Source of the DNA: a virus
Taxonomy: Duplodnaviria > Caudoviricetes
IMG/VR virus record: IMGVR_UViG_3300007171_000004
Span: 236,537 to 300,536 of that record
Strand: one strand, 5' to 3'
Length of the DNA stretch: 64,000 nt
Part shown: piece after piece, positions 8,644-55,388 of the stretch
Layout: every line of letters begins with the position of its first letter
How positions within the stretch are numbered: position 1 is the first letter of the stretch
Translations under genes and position numbers: made by a program
The notes under the pieces: generated by a model
The model's database searches: none
What the model saw: only the letters and a program-made list of their open reading frames with translations
Told to the model about the DNA's origin: nothing

Positions 8644-10965
8644 ATGAAATTCAATCTTTCGAAATTAAAAACAGCAGCAAAGCCAACCGCACAAGATTTA
8701 GAGAATCAGCTTAGAGCAGAATTAGCACCTTTAGCAGAAATGTATCAACAAGGCAAGATTTCTCAAAAGGATATTTATAGACTCCTTGGTACTACAATCA
8801 AGAACTACCAAAATGAAATTATTGCTGAGGAACTTGAAAGATTTAGAAAGCCAGTTCAAGATTTAACAAGGCAAATTTCAAAACTTAAACCTGATTATGA
8901 TCCTTCTGATATTTTATCTGAAGTTATGTCTAGCATTAATGTTGCAGTTATTCCTGAATTAAGAAGACTTTATATTTTAGCAAAGAAGAGAACAGAAGAA
9001 TTATTTAAAGAAATTTCAATTACTACTGAACCAGAAAAACAAACCTGGGGCACATTTGTAGCAGACGAAAAAACAAGAATTTTAGATGACACTAAAGCAT
9101 CTTTTGAAGAGTTTGTAGATAAGATTTCTAGTATGTTCGGAAATATTTCTGAAGATGAAGCCAAAGTCTTAATTAGAAATATTCCTCAGCCAGCTAATAT
9201 TGAAAAAAATCCTGAGTTGCTTGCAAATAGATTCAGTGGAATTGACTCTTATTTTTCAACAAATATTGTAGAGAAAAATCCACTTCCTCAATCCATGTCC
9301 AAATATGTAGAAGCCTCAAAAGCTGTGTTTTCATTTTTGACAGGTATCAGAAATAAGGCAAAAGAAACTTGGACCCAATATATGTCTGGAAGAGATCCAA
9401 TGGCATTGGAACATTTGCCTAAGGTTGATATGCAAATTGATACAGACCCTTGGAATTTGTTAGATCAAGCTGGTTATCAACTATCTGCTTTAATTGGCCC
9501 TATATCATATTGGAAAGTTGAAAATAAATCTGGCAATATTGAAAGCGATAGTAGTATAGATAGATCATTCAATTCTGATGATGAAATTATTCGAAGAGTT
9601 CAAGAAACAGTAGCACAAGGTTATGATGACGATAGATTATTGTATATTTTAACAGATCCAAAAGAATTACAAGGCAACCCAATTTTAAATGATCCTAATT
9701 ACAAAAGATTAAGAGCCTTGTTTACTGAAATTTTAAGAAGTAATCGATCTAGATTTAAAGACATCTTGGTAAAAGCTGGTTTTCATGATCTTCCTGAAAT
9801 TGTAGAAAGAGTAGATAAACTTCAAAAAGATCCTGTCTATGCAGATTTTAATCTTTATGTAAGGTCAAGACCAGAATCAAAACTATATAAAGTTTTAAGA
9901 GACGAATTTGACTTAAATCCATTGCCTTTTGAATCTAATATGAGAATGCCATCAGAATTTCCATGGGGCAGTACAATTAAAACAGACTTTCTTTTACCAG
10001 CAGATGTCATTCAATATTCTGGTAGTGAATTGACAATTAAAAGACAAATTGTTTTCACTGGTGAATATCTCGAAGGCCGAACAAAGTCTCAAGATCCTAA
10101 ACAATTATATGGAGAAAAGCAATTCTTAGGTCCAGACGGTAAGCCTCATAAATTCAATATTAATGTTGGTGGAATTTCAATCTCTAAAGAGATGAAGACT
10201 GGTGTTTCAGTAAAAGAACAAGATATTTATAATGCTACTGCTGATTGGAAAAAAGTCGCTCAACCTGTTGTAGCATCTATGATTGGTTCAGCATCTCTCT
10301 ACTTTACTGATGAAGATGCTAGACCTCCATATACTTCAGCTGCTAAAAAATTAGATCAACATTTTATTATTTACGATTTTGCTGGATGTAATGATGATAC
10401 ATGTGTAGCCATGAATTTACTCAAAAAAGTTGCTTCTGAAAATCCTAATAGTGAAGCTGCAAGATATCTCGCTACACCAAGAGAATTTGATCAGAAGAAA
10501 AAACAACTTGATTATTTAGATGTTGTAAAGGCTAATTTTTTGATGTCTAAAGTATTTTCTGCTGCCATTGAGCGTTCATCTTCAAATAGTTTCACAGCAG
10601 AGTCCATGTATGCTCATTATGAATATTTGAAACAATTAAATCTTGACGAGCAAGATATTTTAAGAGAATATAGAAATACTCCAGATCAAAATGAAAAATT
10701 AAAACAAATTGCAGAATTAAAATTGTCTTTAAACAATTCACCTATGCAAGAATTTAAAGATAATTTCGAAGAAGCTAAAAATCAAAAAAGATTTGCAAGA
10801 ATTTTAGCTGGTTTTGATTACTTAAAAGAATTAGTAAGAAGCACAGATATATCCGATGTTGATCTTAGAGTTAAAACTAACGATTTACAAAGAGGCTTAA
10901 ATATCATGGAGCTTAAAACCTCAGCTGAAAGAATTAAGTTAATTAGAAAATATGCCTCTTCTTAG
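8644..10965 (+). CDS. Large hypothetical protein, possible virion component
   Basis: 773-aa ORF heading an operon with tail-tube-like genes; starts MKFNLSKLKTAA. Confidence 0.75.
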   Translation: MKFNLSKLKTAAKPTAQDLENQLRAELAPLAEMYQQGKISQKDIYRLLGTTIKNYQNEIIAEELERFRKPVQDLTRQISKLKPDYDPSDILSEVMSSINVAVIPELRRLYILAKKRTEELFKEISITTEPEKQTWGTFVADEKTRILDDTKASFEEFVDKISSMFGNISEDEAKVLIRNIPQPANIEKNPELLANRFSGIDSYFSTNIVEKNPLPQSMSKYVEASKAVFSFLTGIRNKAKETWTQYMSGRDPMALEHLPKVDMQIDTDPWNLLDQAGYQLSALIGPISYWKVENKSGNIESDSSIDRSFNSDDEIIRRVQETVAQGYDDDRLLYILTDPKELQGNPILNDPNYKRLRALFTEILRSNRSRFKDILVKAGFHDLPEIVERVDKLQKDPVYADFNLYVRSRPESKLYKVLRDEFDLNPLPFESNMRMPSEFPWGSTIKTDFLLPADVIQYSGSELTIKRQIVFTGEYLEGRTKSQDPKQLYGEKQFLGPDGKPHKFNINVGGISISKEMKTGVSVKEQDIYNATADWKKVAQPVVASMIGSASLYFTDEDARPPYTSAAKKLDQHFIIYDFAGCNDDTCVAMNLLKKVASENPNSEAARYLATPREFDQKKKQLDYLDVVKANFLMSKVFSAAIERSSSNSFTAESMYAHYEYLKQLNLDEQDILREYRNTPDQNEKLKQIAELKLSLNNSPMQEFKDNFEEAKNQKRFARILAGFDYLKELVRSTDISDVDLRVKTNDLQRGLNIMELKTSAERIKLIRKYASS

Positions 10966-14474: not shown

Positions 14475-15443
14475 ATGCCAAAGTTTGTGGATGATTTTGT
14501 TTCCGAAAGATTAAAAGATAAATCGTTCTATCCTGAGCTAAGTGAAAAAGAACGCAAGTCTATTGCATTCGCAATAGCATATAAAACATTAAATGAAAAA
14601 AAGCAAAAGAAAAATAAAAAGAAAAGCTTTTTTATTGGTGTTAATACAAGATACTCCGAACTCTTAAGATTATGTCGTCATTTAGATCATAAAGGTCAAT
14701 ATCGTACTGCTGATAAAATTGTAGAGGCTTTAAACCGTGGAGAATTCTGGATTGAGGATGATGGCTCCACTATATATGCAGATGGTGATGTTGGTGATTT
14801 GAATCATGCAATGGTAGCTGAACAAGAAATGATATCTAGGTTGGGTATTTATTTCGAAGATGAAATCTACTCTATCGAAAATGCTAGAGAATTGTTTTAT
14901 CAATCTATTAATGACGAAGGTGCTTATGGCCCTGATGGTATAGAAGATTATATTCAAGATCTTAAATCTGATTATGGAGATGATTGGGTTGATGAAGCTT
15001 CATTTGATCATTTTATTGTGTGGAATTCTACAAAACAAGCCCATAATCATCCTGCAATGTTAATAGAGAGCCAAAAAACTTTAGAAGGATTTAAAGATCC
15101 TGTAACTTTTGCAATTGAAAACTATGGATGGATTAGAGCTGAGATTAATAGAAATTATGCAGCATTTCAAACTAAAAATTTGAACAAGATGAATTTTGAT
15201 AAAATCTTAGCATGTCTTCTTGGAGATTATCCTGAAGAGTCTAATATACAGCCAGATTATAAAATTTCATTAGAAGTACAATCTCCAGTGGTTACATCTT
15301 TAAAATTTAATTATGATGAATTTAATTGGGATCATGTATGGGAAGAATTTAAAAGCTCTATTGGATTAAAAGAGCCTGTTTCTGAACCTAATTTAGCTAC
15401 TCCAAATATGCCTGAGTATTATCAAGGAAGAGAAGGCGATTAA
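14475..15443 (+). CDS. Putative virion-associated protein with internal leader-like helix and C-terminal GRxGD tag
   Basis: LLRLCRHLDHKGQYRTADKI; ends PEYYQGREGD; start moved to ATG 14475. Confidence 0.65.
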   Translation: MPKFVDDFVSERLKDKSFYPELSEKERKSIAFAIAYKTLNEKKQKKNKKKSFFIGVNTRYSELLRLCRHLDHKGQYRTADKIVEALNRGEFWIEDDGSTIYADGDVGDLNHAMVAEQEMISRLGIYFEDEIYSIENARELFYQSINDEGAYGPDGIEDYIQDLKSDYGDDWVDEASFDHFIVWNSTKQAHNHPAMLIESQKTLEGFKDPVTFAIENYGWIRAEINRNYAAFQTKNLNKMNFDKILACLLGDYPEESNIQPDYKISLEVQSPVVTSLKFNYDEFNWDHVWEEFKSSIGLKEPVSEPNLATPNMPEYYQGREGD

Positions 15444-16912
15444 TGACTAATTCCTTAGAACTATTAAAACTTGCGGATTCATTAGATCGTCAAGGCTTTT
15501 ATAGATTAGCACAAGAAGCCGAAGAATCAGCACAAGAACAAGCAACATCTCAACAAGAATTACAACAAAATAATATTAATTTTTATGAAATGACTGGAAA
15601 TACAGCTGAGTTATACAGTGCATATAATTATTTAAGACAACTTATTGGGCTTGGTCTTAATTCTAGATATTTTCAACAACTTATAACAACTTATAAATTA
15701 AATAATATTGATCAGATGATTGGTGTTTTTGCTAGATTAGGGAATACAAAAGCTGCTGATCTCTTAAAATCAATAAGTAATAATAAATTTTTAGCAGCTA
15801 GACAAAACAAATTATTTACTTATTTGAAAACATTTGAACCAGGAGCGCTTTTTACAGCTGATGAATTGAAAATTCTTCAGAATGCTACAAAATATAATGC
15901 TCCTGCAATTGGGTCTGGTTTAAATACTATTGAAAGATTTAAAAATCTTTCTGGTATTTCACAAGAAGTTATTAACGCAAATCCAACTAAATTCAGAGAT
16001 GTTTTAAGATTTATTGGAAATGGCCAAATCGAAGAAGCAGCAAATATTTTAAAAAGCATCGAAGGTTTAAATTCAAGTCAAGTGGATGCAATCTTATTTA
16101 ATTCAAAAGCTATTCAAAGTGAAATAAAAGCTGCTGAAAATGTTTTAAAATTTGATCAAGTAGCCCTTCAAAAGGGTAATTCTGTATTCACAGCTTTAAG
16201 AGCTATGGCAGCAGAAATTCCCGTCATTGGTAAAGTAATTCAAGTTCTAGAATGGGGTATGTCAAAAGGACTTCCTATTCTTGGTATTATTGCTGGAGCT
16301 GTAGAAGTGGTTGCATATTCAAACCAACTTAAAAGTGCTCCAGAAGAAGAAAAAGCAGATATTAGAATGGACATTGCACAGGGAGTAATTAATATAATTG
16401 GTAATATTTTAATGCTTGTCCCAAATCCAATAGCACAATCAGCAGGTGGCATAATTCTTGGTTTAAATTTAGCTGCAGATGTAGTACAAGGTAAATCAAA
16501 AGATTGGATGGCACAAGCTGAAGGTTTCGATAATGCAGAGCAGATGAAACAAACAAAGCAAATTGCCGAACAAGATCTTTCTGTTGTTTCAAGCAATCCT
16601 GAAGTAACAAAAGCAATGGATTATCTAATCAAAAAAAATTGGGTGTATTTTGAATCCCCAGCTAGATATAAAAATGAAATTTCTCAAAAGTTAATGCCAA
16701 ACAATGCTCTTGCAGATGTTGGTGGACTTTATGGTAGTGATAGAAATGCAAACTTTTGGAAGTGGTCTGGAAATACAAATTCTCCTGAATATTTAGAATT
16801 TGTTCAATCTCTGACTCAGTTGAAAAAGAAACTCTTTGATAGTTTTAGGCAACCTAGACAAATGACTCAAAGAACTTCATGTAGAGCTAAAATTAAGCTA
16901 AAATATGCTTAA
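15443..16912 (+). CDS. Putative ejected/internal protein with membrane-like helices
   Basis: Starts LLKLADSLDRQGFYRLA; Gly/Ala/Ile-rich helices around aa 270-345. Confidence 0.65.
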   Translation: MTNSLELLKLADSLDRQGFYRLAQEAEESAQEQATSQQELQQNNINFYEMTGNTAELYSAYNYLRQLIGLGLNSRYFQQLITTYKLNNIDQMIGVFARLGNTKAADLLKSISNNKFLAARQNKLFTYLKTFEPGALFTADELKILQNATKYNAPAIGSGLNTIERFKNLSGISQEVINANPTKFRDVLRFIGNGQIEEAANILKSIEGLNSSQVDAILFNSKAIQSEIKAAENVLKFDQVALQKGNSVFTALRAMAAEIPVIGKVIQVLEWGMSKGLPILGIIAGAVEVVAYSNQLKSAPEEEKADIRMDIAQGVINIIGNILMLVPNPIAQSAGGIILGLNLAADVVQGKSKDWMAQAEGFDNAEQMKQTKQIAEQDLSVVSSNPEVTKAMDYLIKKNWVYFESPARYKNEISQKLMPNNALADVGGLYGSDRNANFWKWSGNTNSPEYLEFVQSLTQLKKKLFDSFRQPRQMTQRTSCRAKIKLKYA

Positions 16913-19926: not shown

Positions 19927-21252
19927 ATGAGAGAAGTTTTTGCTAGTATCAATTATGTAATCAACAAACTTGAAGAAAAGAATTTATTCAAGATTGCACA
20001 AGAAGGACATGATATCTTTGCAGCCGTTTATAGATTTGTTGGACAAGATGGCGAATTAGTAAGACCTGATGATGATAAATCTGAGCAGTATTATGAGTCT
20101 GCAGTCCCTAGTAATATGTTTGAAAATGATCTATATAGCCCTATGGATAAAAATAAGCAAAGAAAGTGGCGTGTAAAGAGTGAAGTTCCTAGTGAATACG
20201 GAACAGCACCAGCATCTCCTGCATCTCCAAACGCAACAGAAACTCCAAGCGCAGAAACATTTACTCCAGAAGCTCCAAGTGCAGGGCCATCAGTAGCTCC
20301 AGAAAGTGCATTGGTTACAATTACTGCACCTTCTTATAATGGTGGATCTGCAGGGACATCTTCTGAATCATCTTCTGACAATAGCGAAATCCGGGATCTC
20401 CAACATCATGAGTATTTTGATCCTCAAGAGGGAATTCCTATGATTGGAGAAAGATCCGAAGAAAGTAATTTTGGAACAAGTTCTTACGAGCCAACAAGTA
20501 CTGGATTATTTGGTGAAAGCTCAAGTCCAAAAATGTTAGAAGAGCGTAGTATTTTTGATCGTGAAGAGAATGATGAAAATTATACAAACGAAGAAAAAAT
20601 TGCCGAATTAGTATTTAAAAGATTGAAAGAAAAGAATTATAAAATTCTTTCAAATCCCACAGTAATTGAAATGGCAAAAGATCCTAACTCAGGGTTAAAA
20701 GATCAATTAGCACACAATGGTTATTATTTAATTATTCCCGAAGGTGATGTAATCAATCTTGGTGTTTCAACAGATAGAAATACATATTTAAATAAAAAGA
20801 ATGTCCTTCATAAAGCCAGGGGTAGATCTTCTGCATCTGCAAAAGAAGTTCTTTCTATGACCAATACATTCATTACAAATCTTGAGAATTATGGTTTAAA
20901 GAGAGAAGCTGAAGCTATGCATGATGTATTTGTAAAAATTGCCAATGCATATGATCTTGTTAATAGACCTGGCGTTTCTGTTCAAGCAAAGAAGTGGATT
21001 CAAGATAATGTAGCAAATATTGATGCTATGACAAATTTGCAACTTGTTAATATGATGGCAAATCTTCCATTAAATGTGCAAACAGAACTTAAGCAGATTA
21101 TCACTAATTATAAGAATACACAAGGTTATAAGCAAAACAAGCCTATGGGATATCAACAACCTAATCAGCAAATGTATCAACAGGGATATCAACAAGGTTA
21201 TCAACAACAGAACATGTATCAAAATCAAGGCGGTATGGTTAGACCGCAATAA
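19927..21252 (+). CDS. Low-complexity putative internal virion protein
   Basis: Two leader-like helices, Ser/Pro/Glu-rich middle, GYQQ-repeat C-terminus. Confidence 0.7.
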   Translation: MREVFASINYVINKLEEKNLFKIAQEGHDIFAAVYRFVGQDGELVRPDDDKSEQYYESAVPSNMFENDLYSPMDKNKQRKWRVKSEVPSEYGTAPASPASPNATETPSAETFTPEAPSAGPSVAPESALVTITAPSYNGGSAGTSSESSSDNSEIRDLQHHEYFDPQEGIPMIGERSEESNFGTSSYEPTSTGLFGESSSPKMLEERSIFDREENDENYTNEEKIAELVFKRLKEKNYKILSNPTVIEMAKDPNSGLKDQLAHNGYYLIIPEGDVINLGVSTDRNTYLNKKNVLHKARGRSSASAKEVLSMTNTFITNLENYGLKREAEAMHDVFVKIANAYDLVNRPGVSVQAKKWIQDNVANIDAMTNLQLVNMMANLPLNVQTELKQIITNYKNTQGYKQNKPMGYQQPNQQMYQQGYQQGYQQQNMYQNQGGMVRPQ

Positions 21253-21253: not shown

Positions 21254-21284
21254 AAAAAAGGGGAGATTCATTCTCCCCTTTTTT
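21254..21284. terminator. Bidirectional intrinsic terminator
   Basis: aaaaaaggggag-attcatt-ctcccctttttt. Confidence 0.8.
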
Positions 21285-26508: not shown

Positions 26509-27806
26509 TAAATTAATTTACCCATACTTGCATTATAATTTTGTCTTACTTGTTCTGCTGTCATACCTTGGGAATATAAGCGTACAAATGGAGTTTTCAA
26601 TTTTGACCATAAACCATAAGAGTCCCAAGATCCAATAACAAAACCAGTGGAAGTATTTAAGCTTAAACTGTTATTAAAAGAAAATCTCAAAGTACCATTA
26701 TAATAACAATTGATAACACCACTATTACGAGTTACAATTACATGGTTATACTTAGTAAAAGAATTTTCTCCACCCCATTGATCTAAAGCTGGGGGATACC
26801 AAGATCCACTATATCTGATTAAAAACCACATAGAATTGCCACCAGTTGCAGACAATACCCAGTTAGCCTCTGCGTCTGAACTTCTTCTATGTAACCAACC
26901 TCCGCCTCCAACTTGTTTAATCAATGCTCCTTCAATGGTAAAATCTCCAGGAAAATCTAATAGTGAATTATCTGCTACAAGGGCTTGGTCATTAGTCCCG
27001 TCAAATGTCATTACACCACCATTTTCGCTTGACCAAAGTACACCATTCTGGAGTTCAGCATTCAATCCATTACCACTCAAATCATACCAAGTAGTTCCTG
27101 ACCCTGAATATGATGTAGGATTGCTTGCGTCTAAATGAACTGTGATACCTGTTGTAAATAACGACACTGTATTATTGTAACTTTCTAATACATGTCTAAA
27201 ATACAATAAATTACTGGCTGCATCAAACTTCTCAACTACTCCAATAATCAATACAGAAGGACTAATAGCTGAAGTATCTGCCTTTACTAATTTTCCAGCA
27301 TTGATTCCAGCTCCATAAGTAAGTAAATCACCAACATTAAAATCTACTTGAGCTGTACCATCAGAATCAATAAATAAACTTGCAACTCTTGAAAATTGGT
27401 CTGTAATATAAATTTCGCCTTGAAGATTGTAAATTCCAATGCCTCTTTTAGAATATTCGGAAAATAATACTCCAGAAACTGATTCGTCTCTAAATTCATA
27501 AATAGATCTTTTACTTGCAGAATAATGAGAATTAACATTATCTACAAATTTATTATCAGATGAAATATAATTACTGCCTACAGGATCAGACATTAAAATA
27601 GAAGATAAATTAGTGTGATCTCCTGAAGCAAAACCTAGAAATTTACCAGATCCTTCAACGATTGAATTATAACTAATATTACTTCTGTCCGCTTTAACAG
27701 CATTACCATTTGAATCAATAACAAGCGCCATACCAGAAGTAAAGCTCTCATTAGCAATTACTGGGAAATTTACTGCATGTTTATTATATAGAGGAAAAAT
27801 TGCCAT
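26508..27806 (-). CDS. LamG-domain decoration/fibre-like protein, paralog 1
   Basis: MAIFPL subgroup; LDASNPTSYSGSGTTWYDLSGN. Confidence 0.8.
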   Translation of the reverse strand: MAIFPLYNKHAVNFPVIANESFTSGMALVIDSNGNAVKADRSNISYNSIVEGSGKFLGFASGDHTNLSSILMSDPVGSNYISSDNKFVDNVNSHYSASKRSIYEFRDESVSGVLFSEYSKRGIGIYNLQGEIYITDQFSRVASLFIDSDGTAQVDFNVGDLLTYGAGINAGKLVKADTSAISPSVLIIGVVEKFDAASNLLYFRHVLESYNNTVSLFTTGITVHLDASNPTSYSGSGTTWYDLSGNGLNAELQNGVLWSSENGGVMTFDGTNDQALVADNSLLDFPGDFTIEGALIKQVGGGGWLHRRSSDAEANWVLSATGGNSMWFLIRYSGSWYPPALDQWGGENSFTKYNHVIVTRNSGVINCYYNGTLRFSFNNSLSLNTSTGFVIGSWDSYGLWSKLKTPFVRLYSQGMTAEQVRQNYNASMGKLI

Positions 27807-31640: not shown

Positions 31641-32609
31641 TTATCTTACTGGAAAACCAGCCTGGTCTAGAATCTGTTGTCCTGTTGGGTAATAACTCTT
31701 ACCCCAGAGGAAGTTGTTTGGATTAATAGTTGCTTCAAAACGATGAAACTTTGCATGTCCATCAGCAAATACATAATTAGAACCACCTGTATGACGACCT
31801 GGCTCCATGAACCGAATATGCAGTCCGCCATCAGCTGCAACGGATCTACATCCACCAGTACCATTTTGTGCACTAGAATCAGATGGTCCACCCCAGCCCT
31901 CAGCTCCTTCTGCAGCAGCCTTAGTAATAGCAAAGATTGATCCTGACGCATCCGCAAAACTTTGTCCTGCCCATTGACCGCCAGAAACTGTACGCATTAT
32001 GGCATTTGTTGGTCGGTGAGACTTGTTTCTTCGTTCAGTATTGAGTTGGCCAGTTGAACCTAAAAAGATACAATTTAAGTGATTAGTTGCTTCTGCAATG
32101 GCAATAACATCAGCTGGAGCATCAATTGCAGCGATAGGAACAACGTTTGGAGCATCTTGAGGGCCACGCTTACGAGGAAGAACAGCCGAATTAGGAACAT
32201 AGGAAAGACGAGGAACCTGAGCTTCGCATCCAAGGGTATTTACATCTGTCCAAGGCATACAAGGAGGATTGTCTGGACCTACTCCACCGTTCTTATCAGA
32301 TGGACATACCCAAACTTTGTCACTCTTGATATATGGCTGTACCATTGCAGAATAATGAATATATCCACCAGCTGATCCGCCATTAGTCGTTGCGGTGTTG
32401 TTCTTGTACATGTATGCAGTCGGATAGGTTTCATCATAATCCTGAGTGTACATCATAAGACCAATTCCAATTTGCTTCTCATTCGACAAACAACTTGCCG
32501 ATCGGGCCTTCTCACGAGCCTGGGCAAACACTGGGAAGAGGATAGCTGCCAAAATCGCAATAATAGCAATGACAACTAAGAGTTCAATTAAAGTAAAAGC
32601 TTTTTTCAT
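31641..32609 (-). CDS. Prepilin-type N-terminal cleavage/methylation protein with DUF1559-like and H-X9-DG domains
   Basis: [51 protein letters not shown]; [16 protein letters not shown]. Confidence 0.92.
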
Positions 32610-33348: not shown

Positions 33349-33708
33349 ATGAAAAGATATGCTGACAAATTTCAAGATCAATTGCAAAATATGATCAATA
33401 TTCTCGACCAATTCAATTCTCTTTATTCTGAAACAAGTAGATATGGAAATAAAGATGTTTCTGCATTAGATGCTCAAGCAGAAATGTTACAATCTGAATT
33501 TTCAAGATTAATGAGATTATATATTGAAAGCAAATCTGGAGAAGTTACAAGAAGATATTTAGATAGAGTAGATAGAGCTGATACACCAGGGCAATTAGAT
33601 AGAATTAAAAGAAAAATGCAAACTGAAAAATTCCCTGTAGATCAAGAAGCTGTATTAAATGCCATATCTGAAAAACTTAAATCAAGAGGATATGATGATG
33701 TGGTATAA
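33349..33708 (+). CDS. Hypothetical protein
   Basis: 119-aa helical ORF. Confidence 0.65.
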   Translation: MKRYADKFQDQLQNMINILDQFNSLYSETSRYGNKDVSALDAQAEMLQSEFSRLMRLYIESKSGEVTRRYLDRVDRADTPGQLDRIKRKMQTEKFPVDQEAVLNAISEKLKSRGYDDVV

Positions 33709-34261
33709 ACTTGCTGCTATAAGAGTCAATGACCAAGAAGTTCCAGAAGAAGATTTCCTTAAAAAATTTATCAATGTTGCTACTAATGTTAATAAACAAC
33801 ATTATTGGATAGTTAATGGCGAAAAGTATGCTCCACCAGAAAACTATGGACATAACTACACTGCCATGATGCTTAAATTACAACATGGTGTCTATCCAAA
33901 TGATCCAGATTTTAATGAAACACCTATTGAATTTGTTGGAAGAGGAATTGGGAGCATGGCTAATGGCGGAACAATAAGAGTTAGCCAGATGTTAGATGAT
34001 GCTGATCTTTCTATATATGGACCTGTCAGCGATAATACTCTTGAAAACATACTAAAATTTATATCCCCAGACTGTATAGGTCAATGGGAAATTCTTAATG
34101 TTGCTGGAAACCCAAATGGAAGAGGATTTGATTCTCTTAAACAAACAATCCAGAATCTTACATTAGGACTTAATCAAAACACAAAAGAAGAAATTGACAC
34201 TGCTCCTATCAAAAGAGTTGACAACACTCCATCATTTTATAAAGGCAGATCTGGAGACTAA
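33698..34261 (+). CDS. MWY-leader protein with C-terminal GRxGD tag
   Basis: Starts MWYKLAA; ends PSFYKGRSGD. Confidence 0.7.
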   Translation: MWYKLAAIRVNDQEVPEEDFLKKFINVATNVNKQHYWIVNGEKYAPPENYGHNYTAMMLKLQHGVYPNDPDFNETPIEFVGRGIGSMANGGTIRVSQMLDDADLSIYGPVSDNTLENILKFISPDCIGQWEILNVAGNPNGRGFDSLKQTIQNLTLGLNQNTKEEIDTAPIKRVDNTPSFYKGRSGD

Positions 34262-34285
34262 TTTTAGCCTCAAAATCATCTAATT

Positions 34286-34654
34286 TCACTCAGTTACACA
34301 ATAAGATATACAAACAGTTGGCTCCCAGAAAGATTGCAAATATCGTACCTTTACAGAATTAACATATCTAGTAGTGTCATTAGGAACAATTTTTGCTCTT
34401 ACTAATAAATCTACAATAGGTTTTATCAAATTGTCAGAGTCGTGTTTCATCTTCCAATTCATATCTGCCATAACTAAAATTTCTACATCAACTGGAAATG
34501 AATCAGCTGGCAACATAGATTCAACAATTATTGGTAAATTCTTATCTATCCATTCTCTATATTTTTTACTTTTAATTAATTTGCCATAAGCTACTGGAGT
34601 GTACATCTTATTTGCTGAAAATGGATGTGTAATAGTACAATACTTCTTAAGCAT
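34286..34654 (-). CDS. Second RusA-like resolvase
   Basis: PFSANKMY, KHDSDNLIKPIVDLLVRAKIVPNDT. Confidence 0.75.
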   Translation of the reverse strand: MLKKYCTITHPFSANKMYTPVAYGKLIKSKKYREWIDKNLPIIVESMLPADSFPVDVEILVMADMNWKMKHDSDNLIKPIVDLLVRAKIVPNDTTRYVNSVKVRYLQSFWEPTVCISYCVTE

Positions 34655-34702
34655 ATATTTCTTTTACAGGGATATAGGAGTAAAATCGGTAAAATTAAAA
34701 TC

Positions 34703-36388
34703 ATGTGGTATCGAATATCTAATCAATTACAATTACCTGAAACTGATGTCCCTCAAAATCCTGTAGAACCAGAAGTCCAGGAAGAAGAGCAAGAGCAACC
34801 TCAGCTTTTAGAAACAGAAAAACCAACGCAAAGCTTATTTTTTAGTGAATGGGCTAAGGATCATTATGTTCCAACTCAACCTGTTTATCATGGGACGACT
34901 CACGACTTTGACGAATTTCAAATTATCAACACTGGAGATAATTCTTTAGGTGATGGTTTCTATTTCACTAGTGAAGACAAAGAAGCTGAAAAATTCTATA
35001 CAGGAAAAGGCGGAGATCAACTGCGACAAATTGATCGAATCGCCACAGATTTTGCTGATTCATATTATGGCAACGATGATGAACTATTTGAATTGTTTGG
35101 TGATAAATATCCAGAATGTTTCCAAGATGGCGAAGTTAAAGATGCTTATGAATTAGGTGAAAAAATTGGATCTGATCGAATTCTTGGAGGAAAACCTAAA
35201 GTAATTCCAGCTCATATTAGAATGAAAAATCCATTTGTCTTAACTCAAATGAATCCTAACTTTCCTTACAGCCCAACTATGTTTTATGATGATTTCCAAG
35301 AAGAAGAAATTCCAGAAGCTGATGGGGATGATGGATATGACCCTGAAAATAATGAATCGCCAGAAAAATTAATTATTGAAAAAGATGGAGAGAAAAAATA
35401 TTCTTTCAAAACATTAATTCACAAACTCTATGATATTTTATTAGAATATTATGAAGATTATAATGCTTATGAATTTATTAACCAAGTAATATTAGATAAT
35501 GCAAACCCTGGTGCAGATATCAACGCAATGCATATTTTCCAATCTATAACAAATCAAACTGAATATTTCAAACATCAATATGAAGATGATTACCATAGCG
35601 AAATAGTAAAAAAACTTATGGAATCTTTAGGTTTTGACAGCATTATCCAAGACCCAAAGGCATTCTGGCCATCTAATGAATATGAACCAGGAACACAACA
35701 TTATTTCTTATGGAAGCCTGAGAACATTAAACACGCTAGAGAAAATATTGAATTTAATCCTGATAGCAGAAAAATTTATTCAGCCTATATGTTTAATCCA
35801 GAAGGTCAAGGTGTTTTAGATTTAGGCATCAAGCTAAAATATGACCCATCTAATTATGAAGCTAGAATTGAGAAAGAAAGAAATGACAAGAATTCTCACA
35901 TGCTAGATATTGGAGCTTATATTAAAGGTACAAATATCAAACTAGGACAGATTGATTTATTTTGTGATAAATCAGTTCCACCTGAAGAAAGATATGTAGA
36001 TGTTGAATTAGTTTTAGTCTATGATAATAATAAAAGTTTTAAACAACAACTAAGACAACAATATAATCCACTTGAAATAGATGAATTTAGTGGATCAAGA
36101 GTTAAATGGGGTATTGGAGAATTTCTTTATAACGCTGCAAGAAAATTGATCCAAGAAAAAATGCCTGAAGTGAAATATATTGCTGGTAATATTCATAGTA
36201 AAGAAGCATTCAAAGCAAGAAATAAAGCGTTCGGTGATCCTTTAGAAATAAAAGATGTTAATACAGACACTAATGTTTCTCAATTAGATGCTCAAAAACA
36301 AATTCCATATATGGTTTTTGATGAATATACAGAACAACCAGAATTTCGAACAGATGACGCATTTTGGGTAAAACATAATGTGGTATAA
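34703..36388 (+). CDS. MWY-leader protein: ADP-ribosyltransferase-like domain plus C-terminal GNAT-like domain
   Basis: VYHGTTHDFDEF, LGDGFYFT, PAHIRMKNPF, LGFDSII, YFLWKPENIK; KWGIGEFLY. Confidence 0.7.
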   Translation: MWYRISNQLQLPETDVPQNPVEPEVQEEEQEQPQLLETEKPTQSLFFSEWAKDHYVPTQPVYHGTTHDFDEFQIINTGDNSLGDGFYFTSEDKEAEKFYTGKGGDQLRQIDRIATDFADSYYGNDDELFELFGDKYPECFQDGEVKDAYELGEKIGSDRILGGKPKVIPAHIRMKNPFVLTQMNPNFPYSPTMFYDDFQEEEIPEADGDDGYDPENNESPEKLIIEKDGEKKYSFKTLIHKLYDILLEYYEDYNAYEFINQVILDNANPGADINAMHIFQSITNQTEYFKHQYEDDYHSEIVKKLMESLGFDSIIQDPKAFWPSNEYEPGTQHYFLWKPENIKHARENIEFNPDSRKIYSAYMFNPEGQGVLDLGIKLKYDPSNYEARIEKERNDKNSHMLDIGAYIKGTNIKLGQIDLFCDKSVPPEERYVDVELVLVYDNNKSFKQQLRQQYNPLEIDEFSGSRVKWGIGEFLYNAARKLIQEKMPEVKYIAGNIHSKEAFKARNKAFGDPLEIKDVNTDTNVSQLDAQKQIPYMVFDEYTEQPEFRTDDAFWVKHNVV

Positions 36389-37280
36389 ATTCGCTGCTCA
36401 AGGAATAATTCAACACCAAGTATCTGACCAAGAAATAGATGCGCTTGTAGATAGATCTCTTATTGACACTGGATCAACATATTTAATCAATCAATTCTCC
36501 CTAAGAGATGGATTGCTGGATTTATTCCCAAGCCTTAATAATGTCAAATTTCAAAGCCTACCTGATGAATTTGGACTCTATAATATCACAACTCAAGAAT
36601 TAATATTAGAAGATGAAATTGCAAAAGAAGATTTAGGCCTTTTTAAAACCAATTTACATCACGAACTTCAACATGTAGCAGATCCAAATCTTAAAAGAAA
36701 TCATGAATATATTAATAAAATAGCTGATGATGCAACTTTAGCTCTTATTATTGATATTCCTGAAGTTGATGAAGATACAGTTTTCCCAACATATGAAGAG
36801 ACTGTAAACAAAATTTTCCTCAAATACATGAATAGAAAACCAACAGAATATGACACTCCATTCTTAGACAAAATTAAAAATAAATATTCAGAAGAACAAT
36901 TCAATGATGTTATTAATAGAATTAAATCTGGAGATCATCCCTATTATAATTCTCCTATTGAAAAAGCAGCAAATTTAAAAGATTTCACAAGAATTTTCTC
37001 TGTAAGCAATCTATTAGGAATAAAAGATTTAATTTCTAAAAAACCATCATATACAATGGAAAAACATATCAAGGTTATTAGCGATATCTTAAGATCTCCA
37101 TCCTCAGATAAATTTAAAGCTGTACTTGGATTGTTAGAAATAAAATATCCAGAAGCTGAACAAACTATTGACCCTCTGTTTATCTTAAATGCCAACACAA
37201 GCCCAAAATATGAAAAGCAATTTAAAAAACAATTGGGAAATATTATCAACGAATTACAAGAATTATTAAAAGAGAACTAA
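36378..37280 (+). CDS. MWY-leader putative zinc metallopeptidase
   Basis: MWYKFAAQ; LHHELQHVAD, later Y..SPIEK. Confidence 0.65.
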   Translation: MWYKFAAQGIIQHQVSDQEIDALVDRSLIDTGSTYLINQFSLRDGLLDLFPSLNNVKFQSLPDEFGLYNITTQELILEDEIAKEDLGLFKTNLHHELQHVADPNLKRNHEYINKIADDATLALIIDIPEVDEDTVFPTYEETVNKIFLKYMNRKPTEYDTPFLDKIKNKYSEEQFNDVINRIKSGDHPYYNSPIEKAANLKDFTRIFSVSNLLGIKDLISKKPSYTMEKHIKVISDILRSPSSDKFKAVLGLLEIKYPEAEQTIDPLFILNANTSPKYEKQFKKQLGNIINELQELLKEN

Positions 37281-37281
37281 C

Positions 37282-37791
37282 ATGTGGTACAAAAAAGCAA
37301 TTCTTCTTACAGATATTGAAATCGAAATGGAACTTCTTCATAATGCAAAAACCACTGAAGATATACATAAGAATTACAGAAATCTATCTAAAAGACACCA
37401 CCCTGATGTAAATCCTGATCCAGACTCTACTAAAAATTTTCAAAACATTCAAAATATTTATGATGAAGTGAAAGATCAACCACTCTACTCAACTGAAGAT
37501 TTTACAAGCAGAGAAATGACAGAAGATGATGTTAGAGATAATATAGAACTTCAAGATAATTTTCTAAATACAGATGAAGAAGCACTTAAAATGGGCATAC
37601 TTCAATCTGTAGAAACATACTTCAATAATAATGTTCCAGATAATTATGACACACCTGATTTTGAAATGTATGAATCTTTAACCGAACAAATTTATAATCA
37701 AGTTAAAGATATTCAGCCAACACCATATGAAACAATTGCAAATCTAATTAATAATATGGCTGGAAACTACATTAGAGAAAATTATAGCTAA
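37282..37791 (+). CDS. MWY-leader J-domain (DnaJ-like) protein
   Basis: MWYKKA; YRNLSKRHHPDVN..FQNIQNIYDEV. Confidence 0.8.
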   Translation: MWYKKAILLTDIEIEMELLHNAKTTEDIHKNYRNLSKRHHPDVNPDPDSTKNFQNIQNIYDEVKDQPLYSTEDFTSREMTEDDVRDNIELQDNFLNTDEEALKMGILQSVETYFNNNVPDNYDTPDFEMYESLTEQIYNQVKDIQPTPYETIANLINNMAGNYIRENYS

Positions 37792-38009
37792 TTCTTCTTC
37801 AAACTCTTAGCATATTTTAACATACTATCCACCTGAGCTTTTGATGGAATTTCAGGACTGTCTCTTCTATACATGTCATAAATTGTTTTCCGAAGATCTT
37901 TTGTTTTAGGATTTTTAAACAATATTGCAGCAGGTTCGTGGCATCCAATACAACGTTCCTTATATTCAATCTTAGGATCTATTAACATTAAAAATAATAT
38001 TAACTCCAC
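37788..38009 (-). CDS. Putative small c-type cytochrome
   Basis: Hydrophobic N-terminus, CIGCH heme motif, distal Met. Confidence 0.55.
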   Translation of the reverse strand: MELILFLMLIDPKIEYKERCIGCHEPAAILFKNPKTKDLRKTIYDMYRRDSPEIPSKAQVDSMLKYAKSLKKN

Positions 38010-38605
38010 TGAACATCACACTCTTCTCTAATACAAAAATCTGCCAAAGCTTCTAACTGTAATAACTTACCCTCAATATAATTTACATCAATTCCGCCAC
38101 CGTATGTTCTGGGGCCGTCTTCATCAGGTCTAGTGAATTCTTCTAATATCCTAGAACCTTTAACACTTTCAATTTTCCTCAGTAATGCTAAAGGCGAAAT
38201 AGAACCCACATCATCACTATTATCTATATTCAACAACTGGAAAATTGTGCGGGCATTCATATTTGACAATTGAACAGTATAAGAATCAGAAGGCATATGG
38301 GCAATACAACTTAAACTCATTACAACTTTACCATTTTTAACAATATTAAATTCTGGAAAAGCACCACCCTCATCCATTACCAGATTACCAAACTGCCTGT
38401 ACTCAGAAATCCAAAATGATAAAGGCTGATAACCATTCTTCTGTACATATTTATAAAAATAATAAGCCATATCATCATCATATTTATCAGCTAAGATTTT
38501 TCTTAAAGAACCATCAGGATCTTCATAAATACGTTCATGACAAAATTCATACAGGGTGTCATCATTAACTTCTTTGCGCAAATTAGCACTAAATTCAATA
38601 CTCAT
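38000..38605 (-). CDS. Hypothetical protein
   Basis: 201-aa ORF. Confidence 0.7.
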   Translation of the reverse strand: MSIEFSANLRKEVNDDTLYEFCHERIYEDPDGSLRKILADKYDDDMAYYFYKYVQKNGYQPLSFWISEYRQFGNLVMDEGGAFPEFNIVKNGKVVMSLSCIAHMPSDSYTVQLSNMNARTIFQLLNIDNSDDVGSISPLALLRKIESVKGSRILEEFTRPDEDGPRTYGGGIDVNYIEGKLLQLEALADFCIREECDVQWS

Positions 38606-38703
38606 AATACTTTTTTTATAAAATTAATGTTAAAAATACCTTCAAGAGGATTTTTTAAAGATATTCAGTAAAAATATGTTAATACCTCAAAAAGTAAAAC
38701 ATT

Positions 38704-39381
38704 ATGAATAAAAGACAAATCCTAGCATCATTAAATAATATAGCTTCCACACTTGATAAATTAAATTTATTTCAAGAAGCTGATTCAATCACTCTAGTAA
38801 TGAATAGATTGGCATCATCTGAATCAGATTATGATCAAAGGAGAAAGTATCAAGAACTTTTTGATCAAAAATCTTTGTCAGAATTATTAAATGACTTAAA
38901 AAAAGTAATAGATGACATTAATATCAAATTAGAAAATGATGCAAAGACAAATTTAGAAAATAAATTCAAAAAATTTAAATTAAATAATCCTGAAGCTACA
39001 TATGAAGATTTTCAAAAAGCAAGTGTATTTAATAGACCAAGAATAGAATATAAAAATCCTATTGATGAACTTGTAGCAAAATACGATATAAATGATAACT
39101 CAAGCGTAAATCAATTTAATCAATTTGAAAGCGAATTAATGAAAGAAATTGGTAGAGGCTTTTATAGCTTTCCTTTTGAAGTTGATGGCCTGAGTTTTGA
39201 TGGTACTAAATATAATTTAACTTTTCTATTTGACATGATTAGAAAAAAATTAAGAAATAATCCTGAAGTATTACCATTCAATAATGTACCTCTTCCGCCA
39301 ACTGAAGGAGAAGATTCAGAAGAAGATGTTTCGAATTTATTAGAATGGGCTAGAAATCCTTATGAAAAGAGAACATTATGA
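38704..39381 (+). CDS. MNKRQ-leader protein
   Basis: MNKRQILASLNNIASTLDKLNLFQEADSIT. Confidence 0.75.
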   Translation: MNKRQILASLNNIASTLDKLNLFQEADSITLVMNRLASSESDYDQRRKYQELFDQKSLSELLNDLKKVIDDINIKLENDAKTNLENKFKKFKLNNPEATYEDFQKASVFNRPRIEYKNPIDELVAKYDINDNSSVNQFNQFESELMKEIGRGFYSFPFEVDGLSFDGTKYNLTFLFDMIRKKLRNNPEVLPFNNVPLPPTEGEDSEEDVSNLLEWARNPYEKRTL

Positions 39382-39899
39382 ATAAAAGACAAATTATTGC
39401 TTCATTAAATAATATTGCTAATGAACTGGATAATAATTATTTATATAAAGAAGCTAACACTCTCACTAATATTATGATTAAAGTGGCAGATGAATTTAAT
39501 ATCGAACCAAATTCTCAACCTGTAAACAATTCGCCAGAACAATCAAATAATATTCAACAAAATCAACCTCAGCCTTTTATTAAATTTGATCTTCTTACAA
39601 CAAAAGGAAATAGTCAATCCTTTACTAAAACAGAGGGATTTACGATTGGAAGACAGGGCGATATAGTAACTCCACCCGAAATCAATACAGTTTCAAGACA
39701 ACATTGTCACATAACAAGAAATAGATATGGGAAATGGGCAGTATATGACCTTGGTAGTAAAGCTGGCACAAAACTTAATAGAAATCAATTATCACCAAGG
39801 GTAGGGCAAGAATTAGAAATTCATGATGGTATATTTCTAGATCCTTGGGTTGTAATTGAAATCATGGATATGTATCCTCTTCCAAGTGAAAAAGAATAA
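39378..39899 (+). CDS. MNKRQ-leader FHA-domain protein
   Basis: FTIGR, VSRQH, DLGSKAGTKLN. Confidence 0.85.
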   Translation: MNKRQIIASLNNIANELDNNYLYKEANTLTNIMIKVADEFNIEPNSQPVNNSPEQSNNIQQNQPQPFIKFDLLTTKGNSQSFTKTEGFTIGRQGDIVTPPEINTVSRQHCHITRNRYGKWAVYDLGSKAGTKLNRNQLSPRVGQELEIHDGIFLDPWVVIEIMDMYPLPSEKE

Positions 39900-39915
39900 T
39901 AAAGAAAGAAAGCAA

Positions 39916-40476
39916 ATGAATAAAAGACAAATTTTAGCATCCCTTAATAAGATTGCAAATACATTAGATAATACTGGAATGTATGTTGAAGCTAATTCTG
40001 TAACTAAAGTAATGACAAGATTAGCAGATGAATTTAATATCGAAACCCCAGCTGATGAAAGAGAAAATAAGAGACAAAGAATTATCACTGAAGCTTTAAA
40101 TACTCAAGTCAGAAAAGATAATTTGCCTAAAACAATGCAATATTATATACCTGGTGGACCTTTACTTACTATGAAAGAAATTGCAGATGCTATAATTGAG
40201 AAGGCAGATAGAGATGCAGATGCTCTTATTGCTATGCTTAATCGAGGAAAAATGGGTACTGAAGTAATTGTGCAAAATTCTTTAAAAATGTTGAGTAGTT
40301 TCAAAGAGCAATTATTAGATGTATTTAAAATGTATGGTATTCCTTCTGCTCCAGTTTTTTATTATATTGACCAAGCACATAAACCAATTATTGCAAAGTT
40401 AAATCAAAAAATCAAAGAATACAACGAATACCATGATGAAGATTTGTTTAAAGATGAAGAAAATAATCCTACCTAA
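39916..40476 (+). CDS. MNKRQ-leader protein
   Basis: MNKRQILASLNKIANTLDNTGMYVEANSVT; start moved to 39916. Confidence 0.75.
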   Translation: MNKRQILASLNKIANTLDNTGMYVEANSVTKVMTRLADEFNIETPADERENKRQRIITEALNTQVRKDNLPKTMQYYIPGGPLLTMKEIADAIIEKADRDADALIAMLNRGKMGTEVIVQNSLKMLSSFKEQLLDVFKMYGIPSAPVFYYIDQAHKPIIAKLNQKIKEYNEYHDEDLFKDEENNPT

Positions 40477-40708
40477 GATTATTCATAAAAGCATCCAATA
40501 ATCTACAAATCATAATAAAACTAAACATAATATTAGAAAGATATAACCAAGCTAATTTATAACTCTTGCGATTCTCAATATGATATCGCCAGAAATAATA
40601 ACCACAAATCCATAAACAAATTAAATACAATAATAATGATAAACCAAACTCAGATGTATAAGCAAAAAAAGAAAAAGCTAACATCTGAAAAATAAATATT
40701 AAAGACAT
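40469..40708 (-). CDS. Small membrane protein
   Basis: Three hydrophobic segments. Confidence 0.5.
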   Translation of the reverse strand: MSLIFIFQMLAFSFFAYTSEFGLSLLLYLICLWICGYYFWRYHIENRKSYKLAWLYLSNIMFSFIMICRLLDAFMNNLR

Positions 40709-40770
40709 ACAAATATTATAAAAGAAGAAAGAGAGATCTAAAGATCTCTCTTTTTATTTATTAACCTAAA

Positions 40771-41787
40771 TTACACATGAGGAAACATTAACAATAACTT
40801 GCTTAAATTAAATGCTGCTCTATTTATTTTCATTTGGATCATTGTGGAATTATTTAAAAATTCCATCATACTATCATAATATTCTTTACTAATTCTTTTA
40901 CCTTTAAGAGCTGGAATAAGATCATGAGGATCAGTGTAAAGATTATCCACAATGTGTACTATATCAATATAAGAAAACTTACCACCAGGAAGTGATTTGA
41001 ATTTACTTTTCTTTTCATCCCTTAAGAAAAATTTTAAAGCATTTTCTCTAACTTCTTCATGACTTGCATCTGGATGGTCTTTAATATATTTCTCTACAAA
41101 ATTCACTACAATTTTATTCTTTGGATTTTTCTTTATCAAAAATTCTATATGAGGATTTACAACTTTTGTTTTTAATAAGTTTACACCCGACTTATGCTCA
41201 TCTTCTCTTGATTCTTCTAAAAAATACTCTACAGCAGATACACCCATGGATAAAGAAGGAATATCAATATGACTACGAAGATCTATATGCATTAAAAAAT
41301 TCAACATTTTAGAAATTGAATTAAATACTGCAAATAAATGAGTAGCTACACCATGCATACCACCAGAAGCTTTAAAATGCTCTTTAAATATTTTGACACG
41401 TAAAGACGAATCCTCAATACCCTCAAGCTGCTTACATACTTCCAATAAATTATATATGTCAGTAATTATACCCATTAAACTAAATTGCTTCTTGATTAAC
41501 AATTGAAGAGGCTTTTGTTGCTCAAAAATTTTAACAACATTAGATAAAATAGGAACTAATTCATGAGAAACTTTCAATATCGAATTAGAGAGATTTTTAA
41601 ATTTTTCAGAATCAGGATCTAAACCACCAAAATGATAAAGTTCATCTAATTTTTCTTTGCTGCCTTCTAAACCGGATAATAGTTTTTCAGGAACAATTTT
41701 AATTCTACCATCCCTTGACTCAACATCAGTCTCAGTAGAATTAAATCCAGATAAGTTTGATAAATTTATTGCAATTCTATACCACAT
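40771..41787 (-). CDS. MWY-leader hypothetical protein
   Basis: Starts MWYRIA; terminator hairpin at 40730-40755. Confidence 0.7.
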   Translation of the reverse strand: MWYRIAINLSNLSGFNSTETDVESRDGRIKIVPEKLLSGLEGSKEKLDELYHFGGLDPDSEKFKNLSNSILKVSHELVPILSNVVKIFEQQKPLQLLIKKQFSLMGIITDIYNLLEVCKQLEGIEDSSLRVKIFKEHFKASGGMHGVATHLFAVFNSISKMLNFLMHIDLRSHIDIPSLSMGVSAVEYFLEESREDEHKSGVNLLKTKVVNPHIEFLIKKNPKNKIVVNFVEKYIKDHPDASHEEVRENALKFFLRDEKKSKFKSLPGGKFSYIDIVHIVDNLYTDPHDLIPALKGKRISKEYYDSMMEFLNNSTMIQMKINRAAFNLSKLLLMFPHV

Positions 41788-41895
41788 AAATACATAATTC
41801 TATATATTAAATATCAATCCCTAAATAATAAGATAAAAGGACTTAAATGCTTATAAAAGAATTAATATAATAAGATCTACATAGGGATTAACAAT

Positions 41896-42564
41896 ATGAA
41901 TAAAAAACAAATATTAGCTTCTTTGAATAATATAGCTAATAGACTTGATCAAAAATCTGAATATGAACAGGCTGATAAGATTACTGGTTTAATGGTGAAA
42001 ATATCCCAAATGCCCATCAAACAAGCTGGATTCATGGACGTTCTATCAACTATCGGAAGTGGACTATATGAAGCTGGCGGAAGTGCTTTACAAGGATTTC
42101 AGGGAATTGGCTCAGCATTAGTATCAAACGCAGGAGGAATAGGAGGGGTATTAGCAGGGGGAATAACAGGAGGACTAGGAGGAGCAGCAGGAACAGGAGC
42201 AGTTGTAAACAATTACCTAAATTCCAAAAACTATCAAAATCACCTTAAAGACAAAGCATACAGAGAAAAAGATAAAATGCGAGTATATGTTGAAGCTGAA
42301 ACTCAAAAAATTATTACAGAAATAACAAACCTTATCAAAAATAACAAAAACATAACTCCAGAAGCTGCAAAACAACAAGCCATAAATAAAGCTCAATCTC
42401 ATCCATATTTTCAACAAATTAACGCCTACTGCACAACTTATAATAAAATGAGCTTTACTGATATTATTGCCACAAAATTCGATTCCTATGTTGCTAAATT
42501 ATTACCACAGAAAAATATAGCAGTGAAACCTAATGTTTGGGTCCCACCTGTCGAAAAATATTAA
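41896..42564 (+). CDS. MNKKQ-leader protein with glycine-zipper segment
   Basis: MNKKQILASLNNIANRLD; GGIGGVLAGGITGGLGGAAGTG. Confidence 0.75.
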   Translation: MNKKQILASLNNIANRLDQKSEYEQADKITGLMVKISQMPIKQAGFMDVLSTIGSGLYEAGGSALQGFQGIGSALVSNAGGIGGVLAGGITGGLGGAAGTGAVVNNYLNSKNYQNHLKDKAYREKDKMRVYVEAETQKIITEITNLIKNNKNITPEAAKQQAINKAQSHPYFQQINAYCTTYNKMSFTDIIATKFDSYVAKLLPQKNIAVKPNVWVPPVEKY

Positions 42565-54696: not shown

Positions 54697-54717
54697 TTAA
54701 CTGACTATATTATACCA

Positions 54718-55299: not shown

Positions 55300-55308
55300 A
55301 ATTTAAAA

Positions 55309-55379: not shown

Positions 55380-55388
55380 AAAAAAAGG

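Follow-up and report, generated by a model that had tools for sequence, protein, structure and literature searches.

An MWY[KR]x[AS] start shared by unrelated proteins of huge phages is a candidate capsid-targeting and cleavage tag

Why should five proteins with unrelated bodies open with the same six or seven residues? The question is raised by a 64,000-nucleotide stretch of viral DNA (the window; positions 46935-110934 of a 129,429-bp virus record, G000), in which an earlier note had read MWY[KR] starts on five genes and had proposed that the peptide routes effectors into the phage head, possibly with cleavage after (K/R)xA. To our minds MWY-[KR]-x-[AS] is, on balance, probably a minimal N-terminal capsid-targeting and cleavage tag that follows a T4-like logic with another code, [KR]-h-A/Q, S or A (h, hydrophobic residue; the slash marks the predicted cut), and it most likely loads host-manipulating enzymes into the capsid. 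A check against the sequence confirmed all five starts, four on the plus strand (33698, 34703, 36378, 37282) and one on the minus strand (41787), which belong to the following genes of the window.

33698..34261, plus strand: tagged protein 1, 187 aa, MWYKLAA (tag at 33698-33715), with only a weak, sub-threshold Pfam match to LPD26
34703..36388, plus strand: tagged protein 2, 561 aa, MWYRISN, with an acidic linker, an ADP-ribosyltransferase (ART) domain of the ART-PolyVal type and a C-terminal domain
36378..37280, plus strand: tagged protein 3, 300 aa, MWYKFAA, with an HExxH motif (HHELQH)
37282..37791, plus strand: tagged protein 4, 169 aa, MWYKKA, a J-domain protein whose orthologue at locus L097 starts MWYRLAI
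40771..41787, minus strand: tagged protein 5, 338 aa, MWYRIA, with orthologues that start MWYREAI and MWYRKAM

A peptide shared by unrelated proteins

Over all six frames of G000 the string MWY occurs ten times, and eight of these ten are MWY[KR] opening open reading frames (ORFs) of 72-738 aa, three more than the earlier note had reported from the window.

G000 6694, minus strand: tagged ORF of 125 aa, directly upstream of the portal gene
G000 125621, plus strand: tagged ORF of 72 aa
G000 125839, plus strand: tagged ORF of 738 aa

Given the composition of the proteome, 0.009 such starts would be expected by chance where eight are observed (Poisson P ~1e-21), and elsewhere in the G000 proteome WY[KR] is found just once. 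In line with the remark that the proteins share nothing downstream of the leader, all-against-all BLASTP found no significant similarity among the eight bodies, and paralogy of the bodies was therefore rejected. In Sec, Tat and lipoprotein signal peptides a cleavage box comes after a basic n-region and a hydrophobic h-region that spans at least 7 residues; such a signal was rejected as well, as conservation ends after residue 7 and is followed by an acidic or Gly-rich linker, not by an h-region of at least 7 residues.

Is it the peptide that is conserved or the DNA beneath it? A signal at the nucleic-acid level (a promoter, a coupling element or the context in which translation starts), or a start that survives from common ancestry and has no function as a peptide, could draw on the fact that ATG-TGG is fixed in DNA by the genetic code and that ATGTGGTATAA contains the TAA which ends the upstream gene in the overlap 36378-36388. 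Yet the DNA upstream of the eight tagged starts shows no conservation, and the codons of the tag vary freely between genes for Tyr (TAT/TAC), Lys/Arg (AAA/AGA/CGA) and Ala/Ser (GCT/GCA/GCG/TCT), as they do at residue 5. Since flanks are unconserved and codons vary synonymously or conservatively, conservation is at the level of the peptide. Lys/Arg alternation moreover keeps the charge, the bodies are dissimilar and orthologues exchange the tag for another peptide leader (see below), so that we reject a nucleic-acid signal and give this explanation next to no credence.

How widely is the peptide used? Searches with the portal returned 69 IMG/VR loci (50-97% identity, contigs up to 379 kb), and the gene upstream of the portal starts MWY[KR] in 56/56 loci where that region is covered. 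In whole-record scans of five large relatives (261-379 kb) the tag pattern matched 8, 13, 3, 13 and 7 times vs 1, 0, 2, 1 and 1 times for a reversed-pattern control, with matches frequently grouped as tandem islands, and a scan of IMG/VR with an MWYKxAQ DNA pattern gave 55 matches, ~45 of them at ORF starts on low-GC contigs and ~10 that look random. Among the loci examined, an MWY[KR] start is found in at least 32 families of sequences. A family-weighted logo, in which M, W and Y at positions 1-3 and K/R at 4 are imposed by retrieval and positions 6-7 partly biased by the retrieval pattern, has K (0.56) or R (0.44) at position 4, mostly hydrophobic residues at 5, A (0.76) or S (0.11) at 6, Q (0.37) at 7 and no conservation from 8 onwards; in a tagged set free of this retrieval bias, Ala or Ser occupies position 6 in 23/28. 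The most distant portal relative (50% identity; L051 9616-9927; G003) encodes a portal-adjacent protein that starts MSWYRLAK in a genome almost without MWY starts, so that use of the tag varies between lineages. Among the phages in INPHARED, a portal search returned only Bacillus phage G (29.6% identity), and the 502-aa gene beside the tagged portal-adjacent gene found no relative. The tag-bearing clade thus appears to be one of huge phages distantly related to phage G.

As for the payloads, several domains that the earlier note had named could be recovered by profile searches. The ART domain of the 34703 protein is a Pfam ART-PolyVal match (E 2e-11), the 37282 protein matches Pfam DnaJ (E 8.2e-11) with its HPD motif present, and HHELQH in the 36378 protein is invariant in 31 homologues; the GNAT domain also assigned to the 34703 protein, however, has no Pfam match, be it with the whole protein or with its C-terminal 162 aa. 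Instead, the C-terminal domain of this ART protein (residues ~393-561) is homologous to the N-terminal region of another tagged family (L156 10618-12186) and is missing from shorter ART homologues (~360 aa), which indicates that domains are shuffled among tagged payloads. All 36 close homologues (36/36) of the ART protein start MWY[KR]x[AS] and continue into an acidic low-complexity linker; three homologues of 27-29% identity on a T4-like contig start MKIMFKNYIYEAIE and have a leader containing I-Y-E and A-I-E. An AlphaFold2 (AF2) model of the HExxH protein (mean pLDDT 76.7) falls below 50 over residues 1-13, i.e. the tag is disordered, and its fold has nothing significant in Foldseek searches of PDB or VIA-wide, with ArdC/selecase and LPD23 as weak leads. 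No lead came from Pfam, PHROG or Atlas for the 338-aa protein (40771..41787), and the 33698 gene has three consecutive ATGs, the third of which is best spaced to an AGAGGA Shine-Dalgarno-like site. Tagged proteins of relatives carry NUDIX+HAD_SAK_2, InPase (PF18823), Peptidase_M23, AAA_33 (P-loop kinase) and PcfJ domains. With one or two domains each in 72-738 aa, the tagged payloads (ART-PolyVal, InPase PF18823, PcfJ, NUDIX+HAD_SAK_2, M23) belong to the effector repertoire of polyvalent proteins.

Exchange of the tag with long helical leaders

The tag is not the only leader in this region. Four genes in the tagged cluster carry a helical leader of ~37 residues that begins MNKRQILASLNNIA and ends [KR]-h-[AS], and further leaders of related make lie elsewhere in the window and in a relative.

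38704..39381, plus strand: long-leader protein, 225 aa, leader ending NRLA/S at residues 35-38
39378..39899, plus strand: long-leader protein, 173 aa, leader ending IKVA/D, with an FHA domain (Pfam, E 4e-11)
39916..40476, plus strand: long-leader protein, 186 aa, leader ending TRLA/D
41896..42564, plus strand: long-leader protein, 222 aa, leader ending VKIS/Q
15443..16912, plus strand: 489-aa protein, shorter helical leader ending GFYRLA/Q, a heptad nearly identical to the MWY tag
19927..21252, plus strand: 441-aa protein, helical leader ending NLFKIA/Q
8644..10965, plus strand: 773-aa protein, short N-terminal leader MKFNLSKLKTA/A
L001 11870-12313: long-leader gene of the 30-37-residue helical class

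Like the tag, the long leader is spread over many kinds of protein: with the FHA-bearing protein as query 221 proteins were retrieved, just 12 of which have an FHA domain, and among the 120 long-leader proteins listed, 104 have [KR]hA at residues 35-37, with at least 33 body families. Moreover, the two kinds of leader replace each other on orthologous bodies. In the HExxH family, 66 homologues read MWY[KR]hA-AQGII vs 22 with a long leader, ...NVTRIIT-[AS]AQGII, whose NVTRIIT-type sequence aligns with the MNKRQ leader; in the L116 family MWYRFAQ-DMSVP stands against ...KLDRIAQ-DMSVP, and the L122 family provides a third leader swap of the same kind. That orthologues in three families carry either leader with the same junction argues that MWY tag and long leader do the same job as functionally equivalent modules; the MWY tag is thus one of several leaders in a larger system and the shortest of them. 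The junctions also place the tag boundary at or just after Ala or Gln. Strictly, such swaps demonstrate portability between payloads only.

The resemblance between tag and leader ends allows for a more modest function, too. The MWY start might be a processing site and nothing else, so that a protease trims six residues and prohead entry, if any, relies on other features of the protein, or, as a variant of the same idea, trimming takes place outside the capsid as an activation step. The tag is, after all, essentially the cleavage-type heptad minus the helical part of the long leaders, and true targeting information may reside in the latter. Against this speak the swaps at a common junction, which would be hard to reconcile with different jobs, and the fact that prohead proteases of the gp21 fold normally work inside the assembled prohead; in addition, it is not obvious how a protein would be activated by losing six disordered residues, and the invariant Trp-Tyr exceeds what sites in the head module require. 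Hence, we consider mere processing, inside or outside the capsid, rather unlikely.

The head-module motif and the head protease

Does the end of the leaders correspond to anything else that the phage encodes? Throughout the G000 proteome the motif [KR][ILVTFM]A[QSA] occurs 44 times vs 14.7 +/- 3.6 in shuffles, and its counts by region are as follows.

Head module (G000 2-20768): 24 observed vs 3.5 +/- 1.9 expected, ~7-fold
Replication / nucleotide block: 4 observed vs 4.2 expected
Window 8644-42564: 11 observed vs 3.8 expected
Remainder: 5 observed vs 2.8 expected

The replication block (RNR, Pol III alpha, clamp loader, DnaB, RecA, RecJ) is also where tags would have spoken against routing to the head according to the earlier note, and none was found there in G000. 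Within the head module, a protease-scaffold fusion (G000 2-3805, minus strand, open-ended) has eight motif sites and the portal four, and their positions are kept in more than 50 orthologues of portal and protease-scaffold, with K/R, I/L/V/T and Q/S/A interchanging. Conserved sites lie ~30 residues from the N-terminus of the protease and at around residue 300, the protease-scaffold boundary. In the portal (L001 3886-6291, minus strand), Portal_Mu is combined with a DUF559 / Vsr-like endonuclease domain at the C-terminus (Pfam, E 1.7e-08). Ahead of this nuclease-like domain stand two Y[KR]LAS-type sites, both conserved, as though the domain were cut off inside the head. The protease itself opens MY[KR]VAK in relatives, and divergent tag-bearing lineages (GC 0.41-0.44) have the protease-scaffold fusion as well, with 9-11 sites vs ~1-1.5 expected. 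The tag contains this [KR]-hydrophobic-Ala motif of the head module, a putative cleavage site, and can therefore be read as Met-Trp plus a head-type site with Tyr upstream, Y-[KR]-h-A, then Q, A or S.

The protease domain belongs to phrog_18299, head maturation protease (E 6.9e-18), and its AF2 model, albeit with a mean pLDDT of only 60.6, matches T4 gp21 (5jbl) with a Foldseek probability of 1.0 and E 8.6e-4. Two residues, H126 and S177 (HDVSMG stretch), do not vary among 19 orthologues and are candidate catalytic residues. Two relatives (L032 ~13200-13600, L070 ~12930-13320) have an intein-like insertion, Cys-initiated and Hint-like, immediately after the HDVSMG of the protease, a position that would fit insertion into an active site as expected. 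Separately, a ~284-aa major-capsid-like protein (L010/L017/L038/L058 ~19183-20290) and phage G gp27 (L166 23289-24137) share G-R-[TV]-A-L-A-Q at residues 25-31, which could be an extended site and, hence, mark a short capsid propeptide.

Motif and position also bear on whether the tag needs to be cut at all. An uncleaved docking peptide, analogous to encapsulin cargo-loading peptides or to the conserved N-terminal anchors of receptor-binding proteins, could plug proteins into a part of the virion or prohead, for example the scaffold, the portal or the inside of the capsid; its extreme N-terminal place and invariant aromatic pair do suggest a peptide that binds a pocket, and one tagged protein is encoded beside the portal in all relatives with that region covered. 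What makes such a permanent plug unlikely in our opinion is that [KR]hA[QSA] marks the boundaries of the protease domain and recurs 7-12x in scaffolds, proteins that normally end up degraded; such a distribution is typical of cleavage sites.

A full-length Hsp70 gene lies at 17935-19752 of the window (minus strand; E 7e-247), has counterparts in 4/5 large relatives and may form a phage chaperone pair with the MWY-tagged J-domain protein (37282-37791). One may thus ask whether tag and long leaders are recognition motifs of a phage Hsp70/J-protein system, or of a degradation adaptor, that control folding, delivery or turnover. Besides the presence of Hsp70 in this phage and most of the large relatives and of a J-domain among the tagged proteins, it would fit that hydrophobic residues with a flanking basic residue resemble DnaK-binding segments, as is well established. 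The enrichment of the motif is, however, specific to proteins of the head module, whereas replication and metabolic proteins have no more of it than chance would give; where it marks the boundary of a propeptide or domain its position is conserved, and Hsp70 motifs are degenerate with no need for an invariant MWY at residues 1-3. All in all, a chaperone or turnover signal strikes us as quite improbable.

With respect to expression, a promoter-like motif, AGGA-N17/18-GAAY, has 16 copies in G000, of which only five sit 10-40 nt ahead of a gene start. Counting the strict form only, these five precede the MWYRYSG/MWYKFAA operon, the long-leader gene 41896 (AGGA-N17-GAAT at 41838-41862) and three further genes, which encode the protease-scaffold fusion, a head protein of 302 aa and a beta-helix protein of 537 aa; looser AGGGA forms are present before 34703 and 41787. 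For the genes behind the motif at least, this suggests co-expression with head genes.

Other features of the window are recorded here as its setting. At 31641-32609 (minus strand) lies a gene for a DUF1559 protein with a prepilin-type N-methylation motif, a family which we take to be typical of Planctomycetota and Verrucomicrobiota and thus a possible clue to the host. Five tandem paralogues of 429-442 aa at 21283-27806 (minus strand) all start MAIF, and a scan of one of them hit a PHROG family annotated as 'virion structural protein' (E 8e-17). A cluster of five tRNAs (Arg-TCT, Thr-TGT, Gln-TTG, Glu-TTC, Asn-GTT) occupies 54625-56509 (minus strand), and the stretch beside it at 50-54 kb has a GC of 0.45 vs ~0.32 in the rest.

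A loading tag and its known counterparts

Taken together, the proposal of a tag that routes proteins to the head and is cleaved after (K/R)xA holds in part: it is, on indirect evidence, the best-supported explanation, given motif enrichment, leader interchange, portal adjacency, a promoter-like motif in two cases, polyvalent payloads and the lack of tags on replication genes, yet the tag is part of the wider leader system. Mechanistically, the following may be envisaged. A head maturation protease with the fold of T4 gp21 and herpes assemblin, fused to the scaffold, would recognise [KR]-hydrophobic-Ala plus Gln, Ser or Ala and presumably cut after Ala. The same site would be used in many copies in the scaffold, at the ends of portal and protease and at the end of both kinds of N-terminal leader that unrelated proteins carry, i.e. 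the ~37-residue helical one and the six-residue MWY tag that resembles its last heptad (GFYRLAQ, NLFKIAQ). Leader-bearing proteins would be made late, be taken into the prohead core, have their leaders trimmed there by the protease and remain inside the capsid until they are delivered together with the DNA. Once injected, payloads such as ADP-ribosyltransferase, J-domain, NUDIX-HAD, pyrophosphatase, M23 peptidase, P-loop kinase, PcfJ and HExxH proteins could then serve early host takeover and counter-defence.

How the tag would bring its cargo in is a further step. As protease and scaffold form one polypeptide, docking of the tag in the manner of a substrate could, speculatively, itself be the loading step: with the tag bound to the protease domain, cargo would enter the assembling prohead along with the scaffold core and be released by the cut after Ala. 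We regard this as possible, albeit doubtful.

Several points weigh against a capsid-targeting and cleavage tag. The clade is uncultivated, a literature search found no virion proteome or biochemistry for any of its phages, and the tag is absent from cultured relatives: in phage G the tag pattern and the control pattern match 2 times each, though its head module shares the K-h-A enrichment, so that the MWY part is not required by such a protease. A cleavage site alone leaves the strict invariance of the N-terminal Met-Trp-Tyr unexplained, and the sites of the head module constrain the residue after Ala more tightly than the tags do (Q 37%, K, A, L, M, I in the latter). To our knowledge, six residues are shorter than any experimentally verified capsid-targeting sequence. 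Furthermore, the head module contains few of the tagged genes, a late-type promoter was seen for only two of eight, and as Hsp70 co-occurs with the tag in 4/5 relatives, a phyletic test does not discriminate against a role in chaperone recognition.

If the tag does mark cargo, an MWY[KR]xA start, or a long leader with [KR]hA at 35-37, would predict the injected proteins of widespread uncultivated huge phages, including dozens of function-unknown families that are likely counter-defence or takeover factors. There would be head proteases of the gp21 fold with an Ala-ending rather than a Glu-ending code, for which phage G offers a cultivable test system, and a natural, very short tag, its portability evidenced by the swaps, would become a candidate for loading proteins into capsids. 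Should loading indeed proceed by docking in the protease, MWY[KR]xA would be the shortest natural portable capsid-loading tag, and [KR]-h-Ala/Gln or Ser a new, assemblin-like specificity class of phage head proteases common to a large environmental clade and phage G.

Among cultured phages, Bacillus phage G (Donellivirus), with a ~283-aa major capsid protein, is the nearest relative. Its head module (L166 1-27856) has 15 K-h-A[QSA] sites vs 2.7 expected, found in protease gp19 and portal gp14 and as N-terminal mini-leaders on gp9 and gp13, the last of which is encoded just upstream of the portal and starts MKRLISKTAA. Phage G differs in that it has no MWY tag and that gp19, as annotated, is not a long scaffold fusion. 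A proteomics preprint on this phage (bioRxiv 10.1101/2024.12.16.628780) gives no cleavage sites, and our literature search returned no description of an MWY tag or of a K-x-A cleavage code. Likeness to the predicted code comes from a more remote member of the protease fold superfamily.

Maturation and release sites of herpesvirus assemblin read (V/L/I)-x-Ala/Ser, e.g. Y-V-K-A/S, and thus share with the candidate sites a small Ala at P1, followed at P1' by Ser or another residue that is small or polar, and a hydrophobic or aromatic side chain on the upstream side. Assemblin is, however, from a eukaryotic virus, has few sites per scaffold and has no cargo-tag function.

The concept of an N-terminal cargo tag is known already from T4; new here are the evidence from leader swaps and a predicted code of the Ala type. 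Internal proteins IPI-III and Alt of T4, the last being a packaged ART (PMC5512222), have a capsid targeting sequence (CTS) removed by prohead protease gp21, as recounted in PMC10052503 (citing Mullaney and Black 1996). In both cases a short N-terminal peptide is common to unrelated proteins of one phage, an ADP-ribosyltransferase is among the payloads and the protease has the gp21 fold; the CTS ends in the phage's own protease motif, as the tag is predicted to do. There is no sequence similarity, though: the CTS has ~10 residues and ends in (L/I)-x-Glu, whereas the tag has 6-7 with a consensus MWY[KR]x[AS] that lacks Glu and a presumed code of [KR]-h-Ala. Also unlike T4, protease and scaffold are one fusion protein, and the tag is interchangeable with a second leader, helical and 37 residues long.

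Head-protease codes that end in Glu are likewise found in phiKZ and SPN3US, where A/S/G-x-E is cut by gp175/gp245, as compared with (L/I)-x-E in T4 (PMC10052503). These phages resemble ours in having many head and ejection proteins with N-terminal propeptides that end in a single three-residue code, with portal and protease cut there, too. Their propeptides are, however, 20-254 residues long with a Glu end and no shared sequence (PMC10052503), in contrast to the shared leader modules with an Ala end described here.

Finally, the payloads recall polyvalent proteins, whose effector domains are predicted to be packaged and injected by phages (Iyer et al. 2017, PMC5512222). The overlap comprises ART-PolyVal, InPase, LPD domains, PcfJ, NUDIX and peptidases, with LPD26 and LPD23 as weak leads only in our case. 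In polyvalent proteins 2-15 domains are joined in one giant polypeptide or in a MuF/portal fusion, whereas here they are encoded by separate genes with a short tag of their own. If our reading is correct, these phages would have adopted an alternative to giant polyvalent effectors in which each of the same domains is encoded by a gene of its own and addressed individually.

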